Below, piece by piece: positions 19,756-43,175 of a stretch of 64,000 nucleotides of DNA. A program made the translations under genes and the position numbers. Positions within the stretch are counted from its first letter, which is position 1. Each line of letters begins with the position of its first letter. Source of the DNA: Myxococcota bacterium (GTDB lineage: Bacteria; Myxococcota_A; SURF-8); NCBI GenBank assembly GCA_965140415.1, contig OZ223209.1, forward strand, positions 2,400,001 to 2,464,000, given 5' to 3'. The notes beneath the pieces were generated by a model. That model made no database searches. It had not been told where the DNA came from and saw only the letters and a program-made list of their open reading frames with translations.

Positions 19756-19774
19756 GCTCATGTGGAGTGATGAA

Positions 19775-21493
19775 ATGACAACAAAGCCTGTACCCACGAG
19801 TTTCGTTTCTTCGATGCCGAGTTACGGCGTTCCCTATGCGCCTGCGCCAACGGATCTGAGGCTGGATTCCAATGAAGGCATCGGACCGGAATTGTCTTTG
19901 CTTGCAGCCTTGGATGAATTCGGACCGAACCTGGTTCGCTATTATATGAAAACAACCGACCTGGAAGGGCGAATCGCCCAGAAACTCGGTTTCGATGCAG
20001 GTCAGGTGATCGTAACAGCGGGAGCGGATGATGCCATTACTCGCCTGTTCAGGGCGTATCTCTCACCCGGACGGGAAGTGATTCTCGTTACTCCGACGTT
20101 TGAAATGTTCACCATTTTCACTAAGCTCGTCGGTGCGACGATGGTCTGTGTGCCTTGGGGAGAGGGCGACTATCCTGTGGATGCAATTTTACAGGCCGTT
20201 ACTCCAAAAACGGCAATGATCGTCGTCGTATCTCCCAATAACCCCACGGGAGCGGTCGTATCCGAAGCCGCCTTGAAACGCTTATCCGATGCTGTGCCAC
20301 AGGCCGTTATTGCACTGGATCTGGCGTACACCGCTTTTACGGAACAGGATCTGTTTCCCATTGGGCGGACGCTGGAAAACGTGGTTTGCCTGCACACCTT
20401 TTCCAAAAGCTGGGGATTGGCCGGGCTGCGTGTCGGATATGCTACCGCCAGTGCCGAAATGATTCGTTATTTGCGTTTGGCAGGGACGCCCTATCCGGTT
20501 TCCAGTGTGTCGCTGGCATTGGCCACAAAATGGCTGGAACAGGGGGAAGAACCGACTGCCGCTTACGTGACCCGAATCAAATACGAGCGGGAAGAATTGA
20601 CCGCCTTATTGAAGCGACTGGGGGCGTCGCCTTTACCGTCTGAAGCCAACTTCGTATTTACGCGCGTCGCCGATCCCGTCTGGCTGCGGGATGCCTTGGC
20701 CGGCATGGGCATTTCGGTGCGCCTGTTTGTGGATGCTGGCGAATTCCAAGGTGGTGTGCGCATCACCTGTCCCGGTAAGGAAATCGAGTTTGAGCGATTG
20801 TGTGATGCACTGAGAACCATCCTGAAACCGCAGGCGTTATTGTTCGATATGGATGGCGTTTTGGCGGATGTGTCCCGCTCTTATCGCCGCGCGATTCAAC
20901 AGACTGCCAAAGCCTTCGGCATTGAACTGGACGAACAACAGATTGCCGCCGCCAAAGCCGAACCGGGATCGAACAACGACTGGGTAACCACGCAGCGCCT
21001 GTTGCAGCAGCATGGTATTCAGGTGGAGTTAGATGAAGTAACACGACGTTTCGAAGAGCTCTATCAGGGAACGGCAGAGCGCGCCGGACTGCGGGAGCAG
21101 GAAAGCTTGTTGGTCCAGCGCGATTGGTTGCAACGCATGGCGGCACGACTGCCGCTGGGAATCGTCACCGGTCGTCCACGCGGCGATGCCGAACGTTTCC
21201 TTTCAAAAATGGAAGTTAACGATCTGTTCACCTGTGTAATCTGCCTGGAAGATGGTCCACGCAAGCCGGACCCGGCTCCGGTTCATCTCGCTTTGCAGAA
21301 ATTGGGCATAGAGCAGGCTTGGATGATCGGAGATGCGCCGGATGACATCGCCGCCGCTCGGGCAGCAAAGGTGCTGCCGCTTGGAATCGTTGCTCCCGGC
21401 GACGATAGGGAGAGTACGGCGCGGCTGTTGACACAAACCGGTGCCGCGCGAGTATTCGAAAAGGCAAGCGATATTGAGGAGGTTCTGCCATGA
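19775..21493 (+). CDS. hisC: Histidinol-phosphate aminotransferase fused to a C-terminal HAD hydrolase (probable histidinol-phosphatase)
   Basis: LDSNE, SPNNPTG, TFSKSWGLAGLRVG; then HAD motifs FDMDGV, TGRP, KPDP, GD..DD. Confidence 0.88.
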   Translation: MTTKPVPTSFVSSMPSYGVPYAPAPTDLRLDSNEGIGPELSLLAALDEFGPNLVRYYMKTTDLEGRIAQKLGFDAGQVIVTAGADDAITRLFRAYLSPGREVILVTPTFEMFTIFTKLVGATMVCVPWGEGDYPVDAILQAVTPKTAMIVVVSPNNPTGAVVSEAALKRLSDAVPQAVIALDLAYTAFTEQDLFPIGRTLENVVCLHTFSKSWGLAGLRVGYATASAEMIRYLRLAGTPYPVSSVSLALATKWLEQGEEPTAAYVTRIKYEREELTALLKRLGASPLPSEANFVFTRVADPVWLRDALAGMGISVRLFVDAGEFQGGVRITCPGKEIEFERLCDALRTILKPQALLFDMDGVLADVSRSYRRAIQQTAKAFGIELDEQQIAAAKAEPGSNNDWVTTQRLLQQHGIQVELDEVTRRFEELYQGTAERAGLREQESLLVQRDWLQRMAARLPLGIVTGRPRGDAERFLSKMEVNDLFTCVICLEDGPRKPDPAPVHLALQKLGIEQAWMIGDAPDDIAAARAAKVLPLGIVAPGDDRESTARLLTQTGAARVFEKASDIEEVLP

Positions 21494-31569: not shown

Positions 31570-34218
31570 ATGTTTGCGAAATTGTCGTTGAAGGTGAAAT
31601 TAGTTGGCGTTTTCATCTTGATTGCAGCTGTTGGCATCGTGATCGGACTGACGGGGCTGCATGTGCACCGCACCTTGGCAGATGGGATGACGGAAGTCGC
31701 AGATGTACGTATGCCGGCAGTTAGTGCACTGCTTCAGATTCAAGAGGCTCAGACCGCCGTTCTTGCTGGAGAAAGGGCATTGTTAAGCAGGCGTATGTTT
31801 CTTGATGATGACGTACGCCGGGCAAATGAAAAGTTTATGGATAATGCGTTGAGCCGTGCAGAGCAGGCCTGGAAGAACTATGATATTTTACCTCAGACCT
31901 CGGAAGAATCGGAACTTAAAAGCCTATTAAGTTCACAATGGAATTTCTGGCGAACAGAGGATAAAGCCTTCAGGGATTTGGTTACGCAGAAAAAAAATAT
32001 GATTTCTGTTGGTGTTGCTCTTGACGATTCAAAACTGGAGCAGCTTGATGATCGGATTTTCACGAAATCGGGAGAAGTTCGTAGTGCCTTCTTGGTTTCA
32101 AGAGCCACATTAGAAAAGCTGGTCAAATCCAATGAAGACAATGCTACCCAAGGTGCTCTCGCCGCACATGAGGTTGCGGATTCCGGGAAAAGCCAGTTGA
32201 TCATGTTCATGTTGTTCGGTTTTTTTGGTGCGGCTGTTTTCGGTTATGTTTTCTCGCGTTCAATCAGCACACCGATTTTGAGGCTGAATGATGCCGCACA
32301 GGAGGTGGCTGGTGGAAATTTGAATGTGGACGTGGAACTGCGACGACAGGATGAACTGGGACGCCTGGCGGAATCTTTTGGAACGATGATCGGCAACTTG
32401 AAGCACTCGGATCAGATGGTTAAATCAGCCATGGCGGAGGCGGGACAGAAAGTCGAGAATCTGAACAGCATTCCGACCCCGATCATGACGATAGATAAAG
32501 AGTTCAACGTTACTTACATGAATCACGCCGGGGCTGGTCTTGTCGGTTTGACCTCGGAAACAGTCAAAGGCAAAAAATGCTACGACCTGTTTAAAACTCC
32601 CCATTGTCGCACCGCCGAATGTCGTTGCCAGCAGGCCATGCAGGATAAGAACGTTCATTCAGGTGAAACAGTTGCAGATCCCAGCGGCTTGAATATGCCG
32701 ATTCAGTATACGGGTGCACCGGTTACGGATGAGCAAGGCAAGGTTATTGGAGCGTTGGAGTATGTTGTAGATATTACGAACACCAAGAAAGCAATGGACG
32801 ATGCGAACCTGAAGGTCGGCTTCCTCGATGCGATTCCGACTCCGGTAATGGTGATCGACAACAATTTCACGGTGCAGTACATGAATCCGGCTGGTGCAGC
32901 AGTCGGCGGGAAAAAGCCTGAAGAAGTCAAGGGAACGAAGTGTTATGACTTCTTTAAAACGACTCATTGCAAAACATCCGAATGCCGTTGCAAACAAGCG
33001 ATGGAGCGGAAGGAAAATTCCAACGGAGAAACCGTGGCAAATGTGAGCGGTCAAAAAATTCCGATCGATTACACCGGATCTCCCCTGTATGACGAGAAAG
33101 GCAACGTTATCGGAGCGTTGGAGTATGTCCTGGACATCACCGAACGTAAAGAAGTTTTAAACGACATTATCCACGTGGCAGAAGCGATGGCGCGCAATGA
33201 TCTGACGGCAAAAGCAACCGGAAATTATCAAGGCGACTATCTCAAAATCGCCGATAGTCTGAATCAGGGTATGGCAGCACAGCATGAAGCCATGGCTCAG
33301 GTTGCGGAAGCGGTGGAGCAGATCACGGCAGCGGGGCAGCAAATCGCTTCCAGTAGTCAATCCGTGGCAGAGGGAGCTTCCGAGCAAGCCAGCTCTTTGG
33401 AGGAAACCTCTTCAAGCCTGGAAGAGATGGCCAGCATGACAAAGCAGAATTCCGACAACGCCAGACAGGCGGATGGCATGGCGAGCGAAGCCAAGAAAGC
33501 CAGCGATGAAGGTGGCGAATCCATGAAACGGATGGCTTCAGCCATGGGTAAGATTAAAAATTCGGCGCAGGGTACGGCGGCGATCATCAAAGACATCAAT
33601 GAGATTGCTTTCCAAACCAATCTGCTGGCGCTCAATGCAGCTGTCGAGGCGGCAAGAGCAGGAGAAGCCGGGCGTGGTTTTGCTGTGGTTGCAGAAGAAG
33701 TTCGCAACCTTGCGTTACGAGCAAAAGAGGCGGCTCAGAAAACCGAGAATCTGATCAATGAGTCGGTGGGGTTAGCTGAAGAAGGGGAACAGGTGTCCGA
33801 TCAAGTCAATACCAAGCTCAGTGATATTCTCGAAGGCATTCAGAAGGTGGGAGGTATTATCAGTGAAATCGCGACGGCCAGCGAGGAGCAAAGCCGGGGC
33901 ATCGATCAGGTGAACCGGGCTGTGGCCGAAATGGATAAGGTCACGCAGCAGAATGCAGCAAACTCCGAGGAATCGTCAAGTGCTGCTGAAGAGTTGGCCA
34001 GTCAGGCTCAGGAACTGACCGCGATGATTCGCCGATTCACGTTGAATCGTGCGATGGATCACCAAGTCGAACACGTTAAAGCAGTTGAAGTAAAAGCAAA
34101 GCCGAAAAAATACATTGCTTCACCTTTCCGTAAAAACGCAACGGGTGCTTCTGGTATCGCATTGAAACCAGAAGATATCATTCCTTTGGATAACGATCCG
34201 GATTTCTCCAGTTTCTAA
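31570..34218 (+). CDS. Methyl-accepting chemotaxis protein (4HB sensor, HAMP, two PAS, signalling domain)
   Basis: Two TM helices, HAMP ([10 protein letters not shown]), duplicated [41 protein letters not shown]-terminal DFSSF pentapeptide. Confidence 0.95.
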
Positions 34219-34235
34219 AGAAAGCTTCTATGACA

Positions 34236-34267
34236 AACCGGAAGAGATAGTGACGTCTCTTCCGGTT
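34236..34267 (+). other. Strong intergenic hairpin without a U-tract (stabiliser or weak terminator)
   Basis: Perfect 12-bp stem AACCGGAAGAGA/TCTCTTCCGGTT. Confidence 0.5.
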
Positions 34268-34290
34268 ACATTACCAAGGAAACCAGTAGT

Positions 34291-35370
34291 ATGGAGATCA
34301 GGATGCAGAAAGCGGAGTTAGGTCGTTCATGCAAGCAGTGTGGCGCTTGTTGTCAGTACGAGATTCCAATTACGTTGTACGACATTCAAAATTTAGCTCG
34401 TTCAAGGTCGTTACCGGATAAAGAAGTATTTGCTTTGCTGATCCAAAAAGAAATCTCTTCCAACTCTGGTCTGTATAAGATCAAAAAGAAAGAAGATAAC
34501 AATTGCATTCTATTGGATCATAGCGCCAAATGCTCCGTCCATAAAAGTAAACCGATGGTTTGTGCAATGTATTCATGTGCGCAAGGCAAAAGAGACAAAA
34601 TACTTTCGTGGACGGCTGACTGCCGGGATGAGAAATCGAAGCTTACGGTCTGGAAGCAATCCGTGGCTGTTGCCGTAACGAAAGCCTATATCAAGCGCTT
34701 CGGAGCGACATGGAATGACAAGGCTTATGCTCAAGCGATCACTTCCATAAATACGCAATCAGGCAACGATGGAAAATGCAACGTCAAGTTATCCCAGGAC
34801 AAAGATGGAAACCCCTTGGCGTTGATTTATGATTGTGAAAACTGCGAAAGGAGAGGGCAACACGCGCATGAAACCATCGTAACAATCGATGATGTTTCAA
34901 GAATAAGTAAATTCCTGGGAGTGAGTGCTGAATTCGTCTTTTCAACCTACTTGCATGATGCTCCTTCGTTGAGTACTGGTGGATTGAAAACGATACGAGC
35001 CCAGACGTGCATTTTTCGTGGGGCTTCGGGAAAATGTACGATAGAACAGGTCAGGCCTATGCATTGTCGGTTTACACCATGTCCGTCAAGGGTCAAATCA
35101 AATGACATGATGGACCGCCTGTATCTTGGTGCCGGAACGGTGGAGCAGCAGTTCCGACATCAACTGGCGATGCAATACACGAGAAACTATGTCGAGGAAT
35201 ATGGTGCGGCTTATCATGCACAAGGGATGGTAGCGGCTCAGAAACAGCTTGAGAGGGATGTCAGGGATCAGGTGTTATATAGGCAATTCAGCCTGAAGAT
35301 CGCTCCATACCGTTACCTGGAGGACGCAAGGGGGATTGTTCAGAATACTCAGGTGTCAATAGGTGGGTAG
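34291..35370 (+). CDS. Tandem YkgJ-like (CxxCxxCC) cysteine-cluster protein
   Basis: CKQCGACC...CILL...CSVHKSKPMVC; second copy CENCERRGQHAH...CIF...CTIEQVRPMHC. Confidence 0.75.
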   Translation: MEIRMQKAELGRSCKQCGACCQYEIPITLYDIQNLARSRSLPDKEVFALLIQKEISSNSGLYKIKKKEDNNCILLDHSAKCSVHKSKPMVCAMYSCAQGKRDKILSWTADCRDEKSKLTVWKQSVAVAVTKAYIKRFGATWNDKAYAQAITSINTQSGNDGKCNVKLSQDKDGNPLALIYDCENCERRGQHAHETIVTIDDVSRISKFLGVSAEFVFSTYLHDAPSLSTGGLKTIRAQTCIFRGASGKCTIEQVRPMHCRFTPCPSRVKSNDMMDRLYLGAGTVEQQFRHQLAMQYTRNYVEEYGAAYHAQGMVAAQKQLERDVRDQVLYRQFSLKIAPYRYLEDARGIVQNTQVSIGG

Positions 35371-35386
35371 TTGAAGATGATAAAGG

Positions 35387-35424
35387 AAAAGGGCCATGAA
35401 GCCGGTTGGCTTGATGGCCCTTTT
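35387..35424. terminator. Bidirectional intrinsic terminator
   Basis: AAAAGGGCCAT...ATGGCCCTTTT between convergent genes. Confidence 0.8.
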
Positions 35425-35452
35425 GTGTTTGTAAGATTGTAATCTGGAATTC

Positions 35453-36538
35453 TTACGCAGGATTCTTGTCGTGGAATTCTTCCATGAACTGTACCAGAGC
35501 CTGTACGCCTTCGATACTCATTGCGTTATACAATGATGCCCGTAAATGACCGACCATGAAGTGACCGGCCAAGCCAACCATGCCGCGTTCCTTTGCTTCC
35601 TGGACGAATTTATCTTCCAGTTCTTTCGTCGGCAACTGCCAGCAGATGTTGGTACGGGAACGATCTTCCTTGACGATCGGGCAGTCGTAGTAGCCGGGGA
35701 AAGCGTCGATTGCTTTATACAGCATGTCGGCGCGTTCGTCGCAGTTTTTGTCCATCTGAGCCAGACCGCCATGCTCCTTGGTCCACTTCAGCACGCTACG
35801 CATCATGTAGATGCAGAACATCGGCGGCGTGTTGTACAGACTGTTGTGCTCGTGGTGAATGTCATAGCGCAAGTAAGCCGGGATATTGCGGTTATTGCCT
35901 TCCATGAACTTCTTGTTCACGATTACCACCGCCATGCCGCCGGGACCGAGGTTTTTGGTCAGTCCGGCGAAGGTCAGCACGATGCGCGACCAGTCGACCG
36001 GGCGGGTCAGAATATCCGAGCTCATATCGGCGATGATCGGTACACCGTTGGTCTCCGGATATTCATGCAGCTCGCTACCGTAGAAGGTATTGTTGGTCGT
36101 AACATACAAGTAGCGGGCGTCTTTGCTGATCGGATAACCTTTGGGGACATAGGTGTACTGCTTATCTTCGTTGTTGGCGATGATGCGGGCGTCGCCGATC
36201 AGTTTGGCGTCGTTATAGGCTTTCTGCGCCCAATGGCCAGTCAACACATGCTCTGCAAAGGTTCCCGGCGTCAGGAAGTTCATCGGGATCATGGCGAACT
36301 GGAGAGTGCCGCCACCACCGAGGAACAATACGCGATGTGTATCCGGAATCTGGAAGACGTCCATCATCAGTTCTTCCGCTTCGCGCTGGATCGCTTCATA
36401 GCCCGGTGTGCGGTGACTGGTTTCCCATAGAGACATGCCGCTGTTTTCGAAATCCTTGCATTGGGAGTGGACTTCCTCCAGTGCGGATTCAGGCAAAGTG
36501 CAGGGGCCGGGGAAGAAATTGTAAACTCGCTTGCTCAT
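35453..36538 (-). CDS. Phosphoserine aminotransferase (SerC)-like class V aminotransferase with an altered active site
   Basis: YNF.PGP, SHR, GGGTLQF, DMSS, KN, YNTPP, RASLYNA; canonical GAQKN is GLTKN and GHR is GHF; ATG 36538 with AAAGGAG SD. Confidence 0.85.
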   Translation of the reverse strand: MSKRVYNFFPGPCTLPESALEEVHSQCKDFENSGMSLWETSHRTPGYEAIQREAEELMMDVFQIPDTHRVLFLGGGGTLQFAMIPMNFLTPGTFAEHVLTGHWAQKAYNDAKLIGDARIIANNEDKQYTYVPKGYPISKDARYLYVTTNNTFYGSELHEYPETNGVPIIADMSSDILTRPVDWSRIVLTFAGLTKNLGPGGMAVVIVNKKFMEGNNRNIPAYLRYDIHHEHNSLYNTPPMFCIYMMRSVLKWTKEHGGLAQMDKNCDERADMLYKAIDAFPGYYDCPIVKEDRSRTNICWQLPTKELEDKFVQEAKERGMVGLAGHFMVGHLRASLYNAMSIEGVQALVQFMEEFHDKNPA

Positions 36539-36590
36539 TTCAGGTGTCTCCTTTACATCCACGCCACCATCAGGTGCGTGTATGAGAAGG

Positions 36591-36619
36591 GGAGGGGAAC
36601 CCGTAAAAGGTTCCCCTCC
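36591..36619 (-). other. Intercistronic hairpin between xsc and the serC-like gene
   Basis: 11-bp stem GGAGGGGAACC/GGTTCCCCTCC with no clear U-tract. Confidence 0.55.
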
Positions 36620-36656
36620 GATCGATTTTTCAAAATTTCAAGCTGCCAGGCGTGCC

Positions 36657-38393
36657 TTATTTCTTGGCAGCCAGGTGCTTGTACTTGGGCAGGAAACGTT
36701 CCGGCATCTTCAATGCGTCGCGACGGAACGGCTCGGCGAGAACTTCTTCTCCACCCTGGATGACTGCATTGATGACACAGGGTTTGCCGCTGGCAACGGC
36801 TTCTTTGACCACGTCGCCGACCTGATCGTAATGATCGACCGTGTAGCCCTTGGCTCCCATGACTTCCGCCAGCTTGGCGTAGTCGGGGTTGGTGGGCAGG
36901 TTCGCGCCGACGAAACGGCTTTCGTAGTAATCGATCTGGTTCTTTTTCTCTGCGCCCCACTCGTGGTTGTTAGCGACCACGGCGATGACCGGGATGTTCT
37001 CGCGAACGGCGGTCATGACTTCGGACATGCCGCTGATGCCGTAGGCACCATCGCCCTGGAACGCGAAGGTCGGAGCGTCGGGGTTGCCGATCTTGGCGCC
37101 CATGGCCGCGCCGTACGCGAATCCGCAGTTACCCCAGGACAACGCGCTGATGTGCTGACGGATGTTGTTGAACTTGAAGTAGGAGTTGCACATCGAAGAG
37201 TTGTTTCCGATGTCGGTGGCAACGATGGAGCCTTCCGGCATGGCCAGAGACAGCTCACGCAGGAAGCGGCGCGGATGCATCAGCGAATTGGTGCTGGTGG
37301 ACCAGTCTTCCAGTTCCGCACCCCAAGTGGCTTTTTCCTGCTCGATGTCGGCAATGCGTTCGGCGTTCGGCTTCAGATCTGCCTTGATGGCCTTGACGGC
37401 TTTGAGCAGTTCGGAGGTGTATTCCTTCACGTCTGCGCAGCTGGCGACGTCCACGTGGCGGCTTAAGCCCAGCACCTTGGCGTCTACATCGACCTGGATC
37501 AGTTTGGCATTCTCGGGGAAGTAGGAAATGTCATACTGCGGCAGGGTGCCGAACGGTCCCAGGCGGCTGCCCAGCGCCAGAACGACGTCTGCTTTGGCGA
37601 TGGTACGCATGGCGGCTTTGGAACCGCAGTAGCCGATCGGACCGACGGACAACTGATGTTTGGACGGGAACGTGTCGTTATGCAGGTAGCTGTTGCAAAC
37701 CGGAGCGGTAAGGTATTCGGCCAGCGCTTTGGTTTCTTCCAGCGCGTCACCCTGGGAAACGCCACCACCGGAAAGGATCACCGGGTATTTGGCGTCCGCC
37801 AGCAATTTCGCTGCGGCTTCCAGATCTTCTTTTGGGCCGACGCCGCGCTTGATCGTCATGGTCGGATAGATTTCGTCTTCCAGCGTACCATAGAAGTAGT
37901 CACGCGGAATATTCAACTGGGTCGGACCGTTTTCCAGTTTCGCCATGTAGAAGGCGCGACGGGTCAGCTCGGCCATACGTTCGTGACGATTGACACGCAC
38001 CTGGTAGACCGTCTGACGACGGAACATGTCCATCTGATCCAGTTCCTGGAAACCACCGGTGCCGATTCCCATCGTGCCGGTTTCAGGAGTGATGGCGACG
38101 ACCGGAGAGTGCGCCCAGTAGGCGGCGACGATGGCGCTGACGAAGTTCGCTGCGCCGGGACCGTTCTGCGCGATGCAGGCTTGCGGACGACCGGTGACGC
38201 GGGCCAGACCGTCGGCGGCATGCGCGGCGGCTTGTTCGTGGGCGACCGGGATGAAGCGAATGCCGGCTGCGGGGAAGAGGTCCAGGGCATCCATGAACGC
38301 GCTGCCGACGATACCGAATACATCGGTGACGCCTTCGGCGACCATGGTCTCGACCATTGCTTCACTGGGGGTCATTTTCATTTTATCGGCCAT
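36657..38393 (-). CDS. xsc: Sulfoacetaldehyde acetyltransferase (ThDP enzyme)
   Basis: MTPSEA, FGIVGSAFMD, VAHEQ, TDIGN, SWGNCG, GDGAYG, WGAEKKNQ, C-terminal EPFRRDA typical of Xsc. Confidence 0.9.
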   Translation of the reverse strand: MADKMKMTPSEAMVETMVAEGVTDVFGIVGSAFMDALDLFPAAGIRFIPVAHEQAAAHAADGLARVTGRPQACIAQNGPGAANFVSAIVAAYWAHSPVVAITPETGTMGIGTGGFQELDQMDMFRRQTVYQVRVNRHERMAELTRRAFYMAKLENGPTQLNIPRDYFYGTLEDEIYPTMTIKRGVGPKEDLEAAAKLLADAKYPVILSGGGVSQGDALEETKALAEYLTAPVCNSYLHNDTFPSKHQLSVGPIGYCGSKAAMRTIAKADVVLALGSRLGPFGTLPQYDISYFPENAKLIQVDVDAKVLGLSRHVDVASCADVKEYTSELLKAVKAIKADLKPNAERIADIEQEKATWGAELEDWSTSTNSLMHPRRFLRELSLAMPEGSIVATDIGNNSSMCNSYFKFNNIRQHISALSWGNCGFAYGAAMGAKIGNPDAPTFAFQGDGAYGISGMSEVMTAVRENIPVIAVVANNHEWGAEKKNQIDYYESRFVGANLPTNPDYAKLAEVMGAKGYTVDHYDQVGDVVKEAVASGKPCVINAVIQGGEEVLAEPFRRDALKMPERFLPKYKHLAAKK

Positions 38394-38961
38394 GAGAACT
38401 TCCTTTCCTAATTTGTCTTAGAGTACGGATCTGAATACACCAATTCACTGTTTATTCCGGCTTGTCCATAGAAAGCCGTAATGAATAAGCTGTCATGCTT
38501 TCGGAATTCGGAGCCGAAAGCGATATACGAAAGTTGATGAGTGTGCGTTGCCGTAAACGGCAGCTTCAATTCTCTCCTTCGATGAAAAACGAAGAAGAAA
38601 GATATCAGACCCGTGGGCCTCCTGGATCGCGTTCGCAGGCCCATTCATCCAGCGCGTTATCACGGATGGAGTTGTAATGGCCTTGCAGTCGGAAAATGGA
38701 AGATCGTTTGGTGAGGTAAAACACGGAGGATTCTCCGCTTTGATATCGACGCGAACTCGAAGAGCGAACCATCGTGTTAAGGCCGAAATGATTCATCCCT
38801 GGTACGTACCCCGAAGCTTTAGGCGAGCCACGCATGCGATCTGTCCATCGATACCAATATGCTTAACAGCGTTTACTAACCAAGTCGAAGACTAACTCTC
38901 ATCGACTAACACTCTTTTTTTTCGCTTCTGTCAAGCAAAATATGGAGAGTTTCTATAAAAT

Positions 38962-40032
38962 TTACTTTTGCAGCAACTCATAAGCCAGCTGTGCGATCAT
39001 CCATTCTTCATTCGTCGGGATGACATAGGCGCTGATGGTGGAGTGAGCACTGGTAATTTTGCCTTCATTGCGATTGTTGCTGTCTTTGTCCAATCGAATG
39101 CCGAGATGAGCTAGCGGAGCCAGAATGCTGGCGCGAATCGCTGCGGCGTTTTCTCCGATTCCTCCAGTAAATACAATGGCTTCCACTGGGCCGATTGCTG
39201 CCAGATAAGCGCCGATGGTTTTTCGGATTCGATAACAGAAAATGGAAACAGCCAGTTTGGCGTCTTCATCTGTGCGTTCGAGCAGGGTACGCATATCTTT
39301 TTCATTAGCCAGGCCCATTAGCCCCGACTCGTGCCATAGCAGATGTTCCACCTCTTCAAGAGATAATCCTTGTTTTTGTAAATACAAGGGGATCGCCGCA
39401 TCCAGATCGCCGCAACGGCTGCCCATCACCAAGCCCTCAAGGGGAGTCATCCCCATGGTTGTATCGATGCACTGACCTTCTCGAATGGCGGCGGCACTTG
39501 CTCCAGCGCCAAGATGAAGTAGAATCAGGTTGGGCTGTGGATTACCGGTCATTTGCGTGTATTTACGGGTCAGATAGTGATACGACTGTCCGTGAAACCC
39601 GTATCGGTAGACCTGAAATCGCTCCCTAGTCTCCGATGGTAGTGCGTAGTTTTGTGCTTCTGGTGGCATATTCCTGTGGAAAGCGGTGTCAAATGCGGCC
39701 ACCTGCGGCACGGCCAACACGCTTGTTGCTTCGATTCCAGCCAAGGCAGGAGGATTATGCAGTGGTGCTAGCGGAGACAGCTTTTTCAAGTTTTCAATGA
39801 CTTCCGGTGTAAGCAAAACCGGTTTGTGATATTCCCGGCCACCATGAACGACTCGATGGGCGACGGCATCCGGTTTTTCCGGCAAGGCGTTTAATATTTG
39901 CGTGATTGCGCTGGCATGATTTTCCGTGACTTCGACGAGTCCGGAATCGAGCACAGTAGATTGCGTATCATCCCAGGAATAAAGCTTGAATTTTACGGTA
40001 GAACTTCCGCAGTTGAGTATGAGCAGATGCAT
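38962..40032 (-). CDS. ackA: Acetate kinase
   Basis: LNCGSSTVK, HRVVHGG, APLHNP, FDTAFH, YGFHG, MGMTPLEGL, FTGGIGEN, IPTNEE; ATG 40032 with GGAGG SD. Confidence 0.95.
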   Translation of the reverse strand: MHLLILNCGSSTVKFKLYSWDDTQSTVLDSGLVEVTENHASAITQILNALPEKPDAVAHRVVHGGREYHKPVLLTPEVIENLKKLSPLAPLHNPPALAGIEATSVLAVPQVAAFDTAFHRNMPPEAQNYALPSETRERFQVYRYGFHGQSYHYLTRKYTQMTGNPQPNLILLHLGAGASAAAIREGQCIDTTMGMTPLEGLVMGSRCGDLDAAIPLYLQKQGLSLEEVEHLLWHESGLMGLANEKDMRTLLERTDEDAKLAVSIFCYRIRKTIGAYLAAIGPVEAIVFTGGIGENAAAIRASILAPLAHLGIRLDKDSNNRNEGKITSAHSTISAYVIPTNEEWMIAQLAYELLQK

Positions 40033-40373
40033 GGTACCTCCATCGAGAACAAGATGCTGCGGTCTGCACAGGCAGAACGAATCATGATTTTTGGGGCGTT
40101 GGCCAGGCTGTCGGGATTTATCGACATTAGCCCCGATTCGAAGGCACTTTATCACAGAATTCGCTGGTGCCAATCAATTTTGGAGAAAGATCGTCCGATT
40201 CTCTTTTTGGGCATGTCTATCTTCCTGTTTCTGTTCTTAAATTACAAAAAAGCTAGGCTTGACTTTTCGCTATATAACGGTGTAAACAAAAAGCTCAACA
40301 ACGATGTGACACTTCAATGATATTGCCTTTTGCAGGCAGTGTTTGCCATGCAAGCAAAAGAAGGGGAGTCGAG

Positions 40374-40943
40374 ATGAAAACTGCGTTCGAGGAAATCAGC
40401 GCCAAGGCGCTCAACATCCCGAAGGATTGGCGTGTCGCAAGGCGCTTGAAAGCCAGTACCTGTTCGATATCGCTGCTTGCCTTGGGAGCGACTTTCGAAT
40501 TGACCAGCCAATACGTCGAAGAGATGAAGCAAGAAATCGCAGACTGGGAAGACGGTCGGAAAGTCGGTATAGGCGTTTTGCCGGAAGGTCCGTACATTAC
40601 GATTCAGAAACAGGGCGATCGCTTGCGCTATTTGGGAACGGGATTGATCGACCCCGATATTTCCATCCTGTTCAAGAATCTCGATTCGGCGATCCTGATT
40701 TTTACCGGGATGCTGGGCGCGCCGCAAGCGGTTGCGGAAAACCGTGTCTGCACGCATGGTGAAAACTCGATGGCCATGCAGGTGACGCGCTCGATGGCCA
40801 TTGTTCAGACGTATCTTTTCCCAAGCCTGATTACCAGCCGAACGTTCAAGCGTCCTCCGATTCTGACCGGTAAACAGCTTGCAACCAAAGGGATGATCAT
40901 GGGTCTATTGACTCCCAGGCTTTTGGGACTGGCGATGAAATAA
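40374..40943 (+). CDS. Hypothetical protein, possibly SCP2/sterol-carrier-like
   Basis: PDISILFKNLDSAILIFTG...AVAENRV..HG resembles SCP2-type folds; GGGGAG SD; directly precedes the Fe-ADH gene. Confidence 0.5.
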   Translation: MKTAFEEISAKALNIPKDWRVARRLKASTCSISLLALGATFELTSQYVEEMKQEIADWEDGRKVGIGVLPEGPYITIQKQGDRLRYLGTGLIDPDISILFKNLDSAILIFTGMLGAPQAVAENRVCTHGENSMAMQVTRSMAIVQTYLFPSLITSRTFKRPPILTGKQLATKGMIMGLLTPRLLGLAMK

Positions 40944-40994
40944 GGATGTCGAAGGTTTTAACCGACGATTTATCGAAATCGATAACGAAAGGGC

Positions 40995-42176
40995 ATGAAC
41001 ATGTTGCCGAAATATTTCGAATTTATCTGTCCCGTAAAAATTTTATCCGGGCGCAAGGCGCTTTCCAACTTGCCGTATGAGTTGAAGCAACTCAATTCAA
41101 TCCATCCCATGGTCATTACCGATAAAGGTGTGGCGCAGGTCGGATTGTTGGATAAAATCAACGCGGCGTTTGCAGATAGCGATATTGAAATCAGTGAAGT
41201 CTTCGATGATACTCCCGCCGACAGCAGCAACCGTGTGATCAACAAGGTTGCCGATCTGTATCGTGAAAAGGGTTGCGATTCGCTCGTCGCAGTCGGCGGT
41301 GGAAGCGTGCTCGATACTGCCAAAGGCGTCAATATCGTCTTGTCGGAAAAAACCGACGATCTACTCAAATTCCAGGGTGTGGATCGTATCGTGGGACCGA
41401 TGCAGCCTTTCATCGCGATTCCGACGACGGCTGGAACCGGTTCGGAAGTAACGGCGGCGGCAGTGATCTACAACGAGGAAAAAGGGGCCAAGATGGCCTT
41501 TATGAGCAACAAACTCTATCCCGATGTGGCAATCGTCGATCCGGCAATGACGGAGACCATGCCGCCTAAAATCACGGCAGCGACCGGTATGGATGCGCTG
41601 ACTCACGCCGTTGAAGCCTATTACTGCTTACAGAAAAATCCGGTTTCCGATGCCTATGCCATCGGTGCGATTCGCCTGATCAAAGAATACCTGATTCCGG
41701 CGGTGGAAGATGGCAGCAATGCGGATGCGCGGCTGGCGATGGCGAACGCGGCCTTATTGGCTGGAATCGCGTTTTCGAATTCCATGGTTGGCATGGTGCA
41801 TGCCCTGGCGCACGCTACCGGCGGTGTGGCGCATGTGCCTCATGGTGTTGCAAATAGCATTCTGCTGCCTTTCGGAATGGAATACAACATCGAGAAGATG
41901 CAACCGGTCATCGCCGAGTTGGCGGATTGGCTGGGCGAGCCGGAAGCGCATCTGGACGAGCGCCAGCGCGCCTATCTGGCGGTGGAATCGGTGCGGCGAA
42001 TGACGGAGCGCTTGCACGAACTCTGCGGTTTACCGCTGACTTTGAAAGAGGCGGGCGTGCAGGAAAGCCAGTTGGAGCAGATCGCCAAGTTGGGCATCGA
42101 CGATGGCGCGTTGACCTACAACCCGGAAGAGATGACCTACGAAGATGGTTTGACGGTATTGAAGAAAGCGTTTTAA
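40995..42176 (+). CDS. Iron-containing alcohol dehydrogenase
   Basis: GGGSVLDTAK, IPTTAGTGSEVT, GMDALTHAVE, VHALAH, HG. Confidence 0.93.
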   Translation: MNMLPKYFEFICPVKILSGRKALSNLPYELKQLNSIHPMVITDKGVAQVGLLDKINAAFADSDIEISEVFDDTPADSSNRVINKVADLYREKGCDSLVAVGGGSVLDTAKGVNIVLSEKTDDLLKFQGVDRIVGPMQPFIAIPTTAGTGSEVTAAAVIYNEEKGAKMAFMSNKLYPDVAIVDPAMTETMPPKITAATGMDALTHAVEAYYCLQKNPVSDAYAIGAIRLIKEYLIPAVEDGSNADARLAMANAALLAGIAFSNSMVGMVHALAHATGGVAHVPHGVANSILLPFGMEYNIEKMQPVIAELADWLGEPEAHLDERQRAYLAVESVRRMTERLHELCGLPLTLKEAGVQESQLEQIAKLGIDDGALTYNPEEMTYEDGLTVLKKAF

Positions 42177-42204
42177 CCGAATTTCAATCCGGTAACTGAT
42201 TATG

Positions 42205-42238
42205 CCGCGCCCGCCGTAAAAGGCGGGCGCGGTTGTTT
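42205..42238 (+). terminator. Probable intrinsic terminator
   Basis: CCGCGCCCGCC-gtaaaa-GGCGGGCGCGG-TTGTTT. Confidence 0.65.
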
Positions 42239-42266
42239 GCACTCAGCTATGACAAGGAGTCTTACG

Positions 42267-43175
42267 ATGCCCAAAGCAGTGAGTACGATCATCGATTCCG
42301 ATGCCTGCATCGGTTGTGAACGCTGCATTCAAGTGTGCCCGCTGGATACGTTAAGCATGCAAAACGGAAAAGCCGTTGTCAGCGGTTCCGAATCGCTCTG
42401 GTGCGATCACTGTGTGGCGGTCTGCCCGGCCAATGCGATTCGCGTTGAAGGTTTGGATGCAGATTGGCTGAAGCTGGAAACGGTGGAAAATCACGAAAAA
42501 TGGCTGCCCTTTGGCGATTCGGATACGGGAGAACTGGTACGGCTGATGCGCTCGCGGCGTTCGTGCCGAAATTATACGGACAAGCCAGTGCCACTGGAAG
42601 TCTTGAACGATCTGGTGAAAATCGGTACCACAGCGCCTTCCGGTTCCAACTCCCAGTTATGGACCTTTACCATTTTACCGACTCGTGATACCGTAGTGAA
42701 ACTGGGGGAGCATGCACTTCGATTTTTCGAGAAGATCAACAACATGGCGGCCAAATCTAGTTTGCGGATGTATTCCAAGGTTTTCATGAAGGATGCCCTG
42801 GGCATTTACCACAGGGAATATAGCGAATTGGTAAGCAAAGCCATTGCCGATTTTAAAAGTGGCGGAAAAGATCGCATGTTTCACGGCGCGCCGGCTTTGA
42901 TTTTGGTTGGTTCCAAGGAAGGGGCAAGCTGTCCGGTGGAAGATGCCTTGCTGGCCACCCAGAATGTTCTGTTGGCGGCGCATTCGATGGGCTATGGCAC
43001 TTGTCTGATCGGCTTCGCGGTTGAAGCGGTCAAGCGAGACGCCTCGATTCGGCGCTTTTTACAGTTGAATAAAGATGAAAAAATTCATGCCGTGATCGCT
43101 TTAGGTGAGCCGAAAGAAAAGTGGGTACGCCTGACAGGTAGACGGGCAATCACGCCGCGCATCATCAACGGGTAA
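42267..43175 (+). CDS. Nitroreductase family protein with an N-terminal 2x[4Fe-4S] ferredoxin domain
   Basis: CIGCERCIQVCP and SLWCDHCVAVCP (first Cys replaced by Ser), RRSCRNY, APSGSN, GYGTCLIG; AAGGAG SD. Confidence 0.9.
   Translation: MPKAVSTIIDSDACIGCERCIQVCPLDTLSMQNGKAVVSGSESLWCDHCVAVCPANAIRVEGLDADWLKLETVENHEKWLPFGDSDTGELVRLMRSRRSCRNYTDKPVPLEVLNDLVKIGTTAPSGSNSQLWTFTILPTRDTVVKLGEHALRFFEKINNMAAKSSLRMYSKVFMKDALGIYHREYSELVSKAIADFKSGGKDRMFHGAPALILVGSKEGASCPVEDALLATQNVLLAAHSMGYGTCLIGFAVEAVKRDASIRRFLQLNKDEKIHAVIALGEPKEKWVRLTGRRAITPRIING

Follow-up and report, generated by a model that had tools for sequence, protein, structure and literature searches.

The 64-kb stretch of a Myxococcota-labelled genome considered here (contig OZ223209.1, positions 2400001-2464000; "the window" hereafter) raises a simple question: what does a gene of the SerC (phosphoserine aminotransferase) family do directly behind xsc, the gene of sulfoacetaldehyde acetyltransferase? 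We use the working name SerCx for the product of this gene (P0001) and for the clade to which it belongs, and G000 for its genome, a single contig of 5.98 Mb. A sequence-only reading of the window had seen in it a SerC paralogue with a remodelled anion pocket, converting either taurine to sulfoacetaldehyde or cysteate to sulfopyruvate. We find that SerCx is a real, rare and lineage-restricted SerC paralogue; its paralogy, clade-specific substitutions, synteny and the gene content of the genomes that carry it are direct observations. Very probably it is a SerC that has acquired a new function linked to the Xsc pathway. That it is more precisely a SerC-derived, non-orthologous taurine aminotransferase feeding Xsc, as sequence comparisons suggest, is an evenly balanced proposition.

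P0001 is a SerC-family protein, with scores on both sides of the curated cut-offs. The protein scored 420.4 bits against the SerC model NF003764 (cut-off 253), its only Pfam match was PF00266 (93.6 bits), the class III fold PF00202 being absent, and its closest solved structure was the phosphoserine aminotransferase 1w3u (E = 1.6e-101). It remained under the cut-offs of TIGR01364 (408.4 bits, cut-off 443.6) and NF009112 (311.9 bits, cut-off 563), and no PhnW model (TIGR03301 or related) was present among the six NCBIfam families matching it at E <= 0.001. A ribosome-binding site, AAAGGAG, lies 7 nucleotides (nt) 5' of its ATG. The upstream gene exceeded the cut-offs of both curated Xsc models, with 780.1 bits on TIGR03457 (cut-off 676.4) and 858.8 bits on NF005713 (cut-off 620), and its counterparts in the four other genomes described below scored 763-769 bits on TIGR03457.

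SerCx is not the only serC of G000: a canonical copy with the motifs GVQKN and GHRSVGG, 57% identical to SerCx, lies about 600 kb away. Together with the matches to NF003764 and 1w3u, this bears out the initial description of a SerC paralogue behind xsc. The best 120 homologues, listed from 8000 scored candidates in a search over 5.8 billion protein clusters, were headed by nine further SerCx clusters (P0002-P0010), 62-72% identical to P0001. When 53 proteins (the first 45 homologues and eight more distant ones) were placed in a maximum-likelihood tree, the ten SerCx proteins formed one clade (support 100/100, stem length 0.37), itself nested in a clade (100/99) with the canonical SerCs of the same genomes. 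SerCx is therefore a duplicate of its own lineage's SerC that subsequently diverged fast. Indeed, between the same genome pairs identity was 62-66% for SerCx, 70-74% for canonical SerC and 81-84% for Xsc. The nine other clusters total 16 sequences, whose sole source name is "phosphoserine aminotransferase". A profile search of 1.84 billion representatives (50% clustering), among which the clade is not separately represented, gave a best score of 412 bits and no new SerCx members, and a scan of genome contigs with P0001, dominated by one generic peptide pattern, returned a single SerCx (L003) among 80 loci. Four other genomes among 61 relatives carry SerCx (G004, G006, G008 and G001), and the five SerCx genomes represent three families of one order.

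Linkage to xsc was conserved wherever it could be followed. In all five genomes serCx is the next gene after xsc, in the same orientation, with spacers of 91-189 nt (118 nt from the end of xsc to the serCx ATG in G000). A motif scan of metagenomic contigs (JGI) retrieved 17 stretches, of which 16 were chance matches by tblastn and one was real: this locus (L127) encodes P0008 exactly and has an xsc gene (80% identical) directly upstream. The adjacency thus holds at six of the six loci reached, out of ten clusters, a count that excludes P0003, P0004, P0005 and P0006, whose genomic context was not placed. Co-occurrence of this type of SerC with xsc, which the sequence-only reading had seen at one locus, is therefore conserved.

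Could SerCx nevertheless be an ordinary phosphoserine aminotransferase (PSAT), a redundant isozyme standing next to xsc by chance? It does pass NF003764, and two of the genomes seem at first to need it: G000, G001 and G008 have a canonical SerC, and none was found in G004 and G006. However, these two genomes carry an AGAT-family class V aminotransferase (Table 1), which was not found in the other three. AGAT-family class V aminotransferases act as PSAT where SerC is missing, and those of G004 and G006 are likely the alternative phosphoserine aminotransferase. Such complementarity with canonical SerC suggests that in none of the five genomes does SerCx have the housekeeping role. The score under the TIGR01364 cut-off, the long stem branch and the strict linkage to xsc also argue against an ordinary PSAT, and so do the residues of the active site.

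Alignment with the Bacillus enzyme and a multiple alignment confirmed the motifs first read from the window (ETSHRT, AGLTKNLGP and GHFMVGHLRASLYN in P0001). SerCx keeps the pyridoxal 5'-phosphate (PLP) lysine K195, D171, W103, the N236-T237 pair, the SHR motif as H42-R43 and the RASxYN arginine as R333; these intact PLP-binding residues, the first His-Arg pair and the carboxylate arginine are what an ordinary PSAT would show. As previously claimed, GHRSVGG has become GHFMVGH and AGAQKN has become AGLTKN in P0001: the second of the two phosphate-binding His-Arg pairs reads H326-F327, and the (G/A)xQKN signature is interrupted by T194 in front of K195. The residues specific to the clade are W38, T194, F327 and H331 (in P0001). 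W38, T194 and F327 occur in all ten members (P0001-P0010), as do the alpha-carboxylate arginine R333 and W103, while position 331 is H, F or K. In the remaining 110 of the best 120 homologues, W does not occur at position 38; 109 have Q and one has H at position 194 (T in none); at position 327, 108 have R, one K and one P; and 109 have G at position 331. A wider set of 150 SerC-like representatives has Q at position 194 in 145 cases, and T is confined to the ten SerCx members.

The available passages of a structural study of Arabidopsis PSAT1 (AtPSAT1; PMC6043687) allow these positions to be interpreted. There, the phosphate of phosphoserine is held by H396/R397 of a gate-keeping loop (residues 391-401) and by H110/R111 of the other subunit, R403 binds the substrate carboxylate, and Q264, which precedes the Schiff-base lysine, touches the PLP phosphate rather than the substrate anion. 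Mapped onto these passages via the alignments, F327 takes the place of the gate-keeping-loop arginine, a phosphate ligand, H331 stands at the second glycine of the loop and T194 at the PLP-phosphate glutamine, whereas the equivalents of H110/R111 and R403 are retained. The premise that SerC binds phosphate through two His-Arg pairs thus agrees with what that source describes; the glutamine, which the sequence-only reading had listed with the changed anion pocket, contacts the PLP phosphate instead. The remodelled pocket itself holds as a trait fixed in a distinct clade, but the loss of the second arginine is shared by other SerC-like lineages, a point that an ordinary PSAT can also claim. All together, the loss of a direct phosphate ligand (as that source describes it) and the fixed, clade-specific T194, W38 and F327 make an ordinary PSAT highly unlikely. 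Compared with characterized SerC/PSAT enzymes (E. coli, Bacillus circulans 1w3u/1bt4, Arabidopsis PSAT1), SerCx has the fold, length and PLP residues in common; unlike them, it has Phe for the second-pair Arg, His, Phe or Lys for the Gly four residues on, Thr for Gln and a Trp at position 38, and it adjoins xsc at every locus reached, with another PSAT candidate in every genome.

Loop-arginine loss elsewhere in the SerC-like proteins is a separate observation. In some of these lineages the residue preceding the lysine differs too: P0193 combines SHKN with GHTVVGH, P0195 combines AHKN with GHSIVGD, and P0062 has AHKN; P0243 also belongs to the arginine-less lineages. These four and others may be further neofunctionalised SerC families.

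The xsc loci of related bacteria show what otherwise occupies the position of serCx. Of 401 genomes of the phylum, 38 had a match to xsc at the E-value limit, 36 of them above the family cut-off. Thirty xsc loci were checked by tblastn with 1.5-kb flanks: SerCx was a neighbour in four, a class III aminotransferase in nine, and neither was found in 17. The class III loci make up nine of the ten loci whose Xsc is nearest to that of G000 (54-58% identity), whereas those with neither mostly belong to a distant Xsc clade (13 loci, about 41% identity). Longer flanks revealed the order ackA, xsc, class III aminotransferase in G057, and in G037 and G032 the class III gene lies immediately upstream of xsc; two of these three aminotransferases passed the model of the omega-aminotransferase AptA. 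The order in G000 (ackA, xsc, serCx) is that of G057 with the aminotransferase family exchanged. Moreover, none of the seven class III aminotransferases of G000 (ornithine aminotransferase, ArgD-like, HemL, two HemL-like and two unassigned) is an orthologue of the xsc-linked enzymes (24-33% identity), and none reached the cut-off of an omega-aminotransferase model. All seven PF00202 matches lie outside 2400001-2464000, the nearest at 2487433, so the earlier remark that the window holds no class III aminotransferase is correct. The Xsc proteins of the five SerCx genomes form their own clade, with 81-86% identity among themselves and 55-59% to class-III-linked Xsc.

Judged from these sequence comparisons, SerCx probably takes the place of the usual taurine aminotransferase ahead of Xsc. 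It would share with the class III taurine aminotransferases Tpa and Toa the proposed reaction and the position beside xsc, often near ackA. Unlike them, it is a PF00266 and not a PF00202 protein, and thus could be at most their functional analogue, not a member of their family. With taurine as substrate, a known step would have been taken over by another enzyme family and no new entry route would have arisen. The taurine part of the "new entry to C2-sulfonate catabolism" put forward earlier consequently stands as an evenly weighted candidate, while its novelty as a route falls.

The following account of what SerCx acts on, in which direction, with which amino acceptor and in what kind of pocket is inferred. 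SerCx would transaminate taurine with pyruvate or 2-oxoglutarate to give sulfoacetaldehyde, which Xsc would convert to acetyl phosphate and sulfite; AckA would then gain ATP from acetyl phosphate, and the dissimilatory sulfite reductase would use sulfite as an electron acceptor. DsrA over its cut-off, with DsrB beside it, is found in all five SerCx genomes, and ackA adjoins xsc in G000 and G006 only. The same scheme, with the class III Tpa, Xsc, AckA and sulfite as acceptor, appears in the available passages on the sulfate reducer Desulfotomaculum ruminis (PMC3569383). By homology, the chemistry of SerCx would be an ordinary PLP ping-pong on K195, with R333 engaging the keto-acid partner through its carboxylate. 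The former phosphate pocket would receive the sulfonate, with H42/R43 of the partner subunit and H326 as its ligands, and F327 (the arginine being lost) along with the aromatic or imidazole groups of W38, residue 102 and H331 would leave this pocket smaller and less charged.

The same pocket might accommodate cysteate, so that SerCx would be a cysteate aminotransferase producing 3-sulfopyruvate, which would pass to an unrecognised decarboxylase or directly to the SerCx-linked clade of Xsc. Cysteate resembles phosphoserine most closely, R333 and W103 do not vary within the clade, a smaller and less positive pocket would suit a beta-sulfonate, and the SerCx-linked Xsc proteins stand in a clade of their own. 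However, the cysteate branch of the sequence-only reading needs a sulfopyruvate decarboxylase, which was not found in any of the five genomes (93-96% complete): ComD had no match and ComE only weak, generic thiamine diphosphate (ThDP) enzyme matches under the cut-off. Xsc passes both curated models, a keto-acid partner would require R333 anyway, and the position shared with omega-aminotransferases points to an omega-amine substrate. We consider a cysteate aminotransferase unlikely. Its two-enzyme form, without ComDE, is quite improbable: SerCx would make 3-sulfopyruvate from L-cysteate and the SerCx-linked Xsc would take sulfopyruvate directly, by ThDP-dependent decarboxylation to a sulfoacetaldehyde-type enamine followed by sulfite elimination and phosphorolysis, so that cysteate would yield acetyl phosphate, CO2 and sulfite. 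The retained alpha-carboxylate site, the failure to find ComDE in the five genomes and the separate Xsc clade permit such a route.

Linkage to xsc indicates a connection to the pathway and not a substrate, and no nearby transporter defines the input. SerCx might therefore act on another amine or aldehyde (hypotaurine, homotaurine or 2-aminoethylphosphonate), or run in reverse as a safety valve from sulfoacetaldehyde to taurine. A precedent for such a substrate is PhnW, a class V enzyme that takes an omega-aminophosphonate; as an enzyme accepting an omega-amine with an anionic group, it is equally a chemical precedent for taurine within class V. However, PhnW belongs to the AGAT branch and SerCx to the SerC branch, P0001 matching no PhnW model, and phosphonates would leave Xsc without a role. 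A detoxifying reaction would leave unexplained why SerCx shares its position with the class III aminotransferase of the sister clade. We regard these other activities as rather doubtful.

Several points weigh against the proposal of a taurine aminotransferase. SerC substrates are alpha-amino acids and taurine lacks the alpha-carboxylate, so cysteate would be the smaller evolutionary step. A search of the five SerCx genomes for TauA, the taurine-binding protein of the ATP-binding cassette (ABC) type, did not find it (the tripartite ATP-independent periplasmic (TRAP)-type TauKLM was not searched), and the xsc-serCx locus has neither a taurine transporter nor a TauR-type regulator linked to it. 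The loop arginine is replaced in 33 of the 150 SerC-like representatives, whose functions are uncharacterised; its loss by itself thus proves little and is not diagnostic. The linkage rests on six of ten clusters, P0003 to P0006 being unplaced, and beyond the xsc-serCx pair itself no conservation of surrounding genes was seen in the five genomes. These genomes are moreover kin, so five out of five overstates independence and does not represent five independent events. The 17 of 30 xsc loci without an aminotransferase within 1.5 kb imply that Xsc does not always depend on an adjacent one. Finally, about 50 kb from serCx, a glycyl-radical-enzyme cluster contains two class III enzymes that may be candidate taurine aminotransferases.

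Should SerCx act on taurine or another sulfonate, a sulfonate aminotransferase would have had an independent origin within the SerC branch of class V enzymes. Full-text literature, with subscription journals outside the scope, yielded no description of a SerC-type sulfonate aminotransferase and nothing that links sulfoacetaldehyde acetyltransferase or xsc with phosphoserine aminotransferase or serC. On cysteate aminotransferase and sulfopyruvate it gave a single, unrelated genome report, and on taurine, sulfoacetaldehyde and class V aminotransferases a genome report whose enzyme is a class III Tpa (PMC3569383). Since annotation pipelines name SerCx phosphoserine aminotransferase, taurine or sulfonate respiration would be missed, and would thus remain hidden in the dsrAB-bearing uncultured relatives of this Myxococcota-labelled metagenome-assembled genome. 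SerCx would also be a clean natural case of neofunctionalisation, in which the parent enzyme persists in G000 and only a handful of definite substitutions are candidates for the switch in specificity (Q to T at 194, R to F at 327, G to H at 331 and W at 38), and hence a tractable system for the change from a phosphate to a sulfonate pocket. The family being rare (ten clusters, of which the nine looked up hold 16 sequences), its ecological weight is probably small.

Reads from the environment give a hint of expression. The stretch is present in three sequencing runs of one study, in one of them almost identically, and this run may be its source. An aquatic metatranscriptome library of a different study contained four short contigs 89-95% like xsc and one contig of 226 nt on serCx with 18 differences; by hand count, eight of the 11 listed differences fall at third codon positions. 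The library covers the stretch in parts, with most of ackA uncovered, and DNA carry-over is possible. These contigs are a weak sign that a relative of G000 expresses both xsc and serCx.

Table 1. Positions of the genes and elements discussed, counted within the window unless a contig is given.
Feature	Position	Strand	Basis or remarks
serCx (SerC-family class V aminotransferase, 361 residues, P0001)	35453..36538	minus	Open reading frame (ATG at 36538, stop codon end at 35453), profile matches, alignments
xsc (sulfoacetaldehyde acetyltransferase, ThDP enzyme, 578 residues)	36657..38393	minus	TIGR03457, NF005713
GC-rich hairpin, 11-bp stem, in xsc-serCx spacer	36591..36619	minus	Hairpin scan
ackA (acetate kinase)	38962..40032 (start approximate)	minus	Profile match, internal Met of MHLLILNCGSS
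Fe-type alcohol dehydrogenase and 4Fe-4S ferredoxin-nitroreductase fusion	40995-43175	plus	Profile matches; divergent from ackA
359-residue protein, N-terminal CxxCxxCC (PF03692) metal-chelating domain	34291-35370	plus	Convergent with serCx
577-residue fusion, class I/II aminotransferase (HisC-like) and HAD-family hydrolase	19760-21493	plus	Inside histidine operon
Canonical serC of G000	C1:3037282-3038358		Alignment
GntR regulator, glycyl radical enzyme, activase, PNPOx-like protein, two tandem class III aminotransferases, Zn-alcohol dehydrogenase	G000:C1:2486000-2495600 (L134:7184-16597)	minus	
AGAT-family class V aminotransferase, G004	C2:1576921-1578096 (L113)		BhcA-like, 281-292 bits (both copies), below cut-off
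AGAT-family class V aminotransferase, G006	C1:1654910-1656049 (L112)		BhcA-like, 281-292 bits (both copies), below cut-off

The spacer between xsc and serCx contains a GC-rich hairpin, and comparable hairpins with different stems were seen by eye in the spacers of the other four genomes (L003, L094, L095 and L096). On the 3' side of the hairpin, on the coding strand, a T-run is absent in G000 and a T-rich tail is present in G006. The hairpin may act between the two cistrons as a stabiliser, or as a partial terminator by which the ratio of Xsc to SerCx expression is set. An Rfam scan of 34000-42000 gave no match, a simple scan for promoters and terminators found sites no more numerous than in shuffled sequence, and 5' of xsc the sigma-54 consensus had two poor matches in G000 and none in the other four genomes.

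Upstream of xsc, ackA follows after a gap of 570 nt. Its reading frame is listed from a TTG at 40173, and homology to AckA begins 47 codons in, at MHLLILNCGSS (about 40032). The best stretch of its Pfam match begins at profile position 83, in G006 as well, and its N-terminal part is thus unusual. Beyond ackA, neither the Fe-type alcohol dehydrogenase nor the ferredoxin-nitroreductase fusion was found at the other four SerCx loci. The dehydrogenase (40995-42176) scored 334 bits on ErcA (cut-off 550); as a candidate sulfoacetaldehyde reductase it was rejected, with 242 bits on SarD against a cut-off of 700 and no counterpart at the other four loci. On the other side of serCx, the metal-chelating-domain protein had no NCBIfam match and is not conserved at the other SerCx loci.

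About 22 kb beyond the end of the window, the glycyl radical enzyme of the cluster mentioned above fell far under every curated cut-off (HypD 375, HpfG 367, HpsG 354 and CutC 318 bits), and the cluster may encode an uncharacterised radical pathway that acts on an amino alcohol or an aminosulfonate. No sulfonate transporter was seen in the 64-kb window, the remainder of which holds histidine biosynthesis, sugar-nucleotide, ABC-transporter and signalling genes. Within the histidine operon, the product of the HisC-like fusion gene may be a fused histidinol-phosphate aminotransferase and phosphatase.

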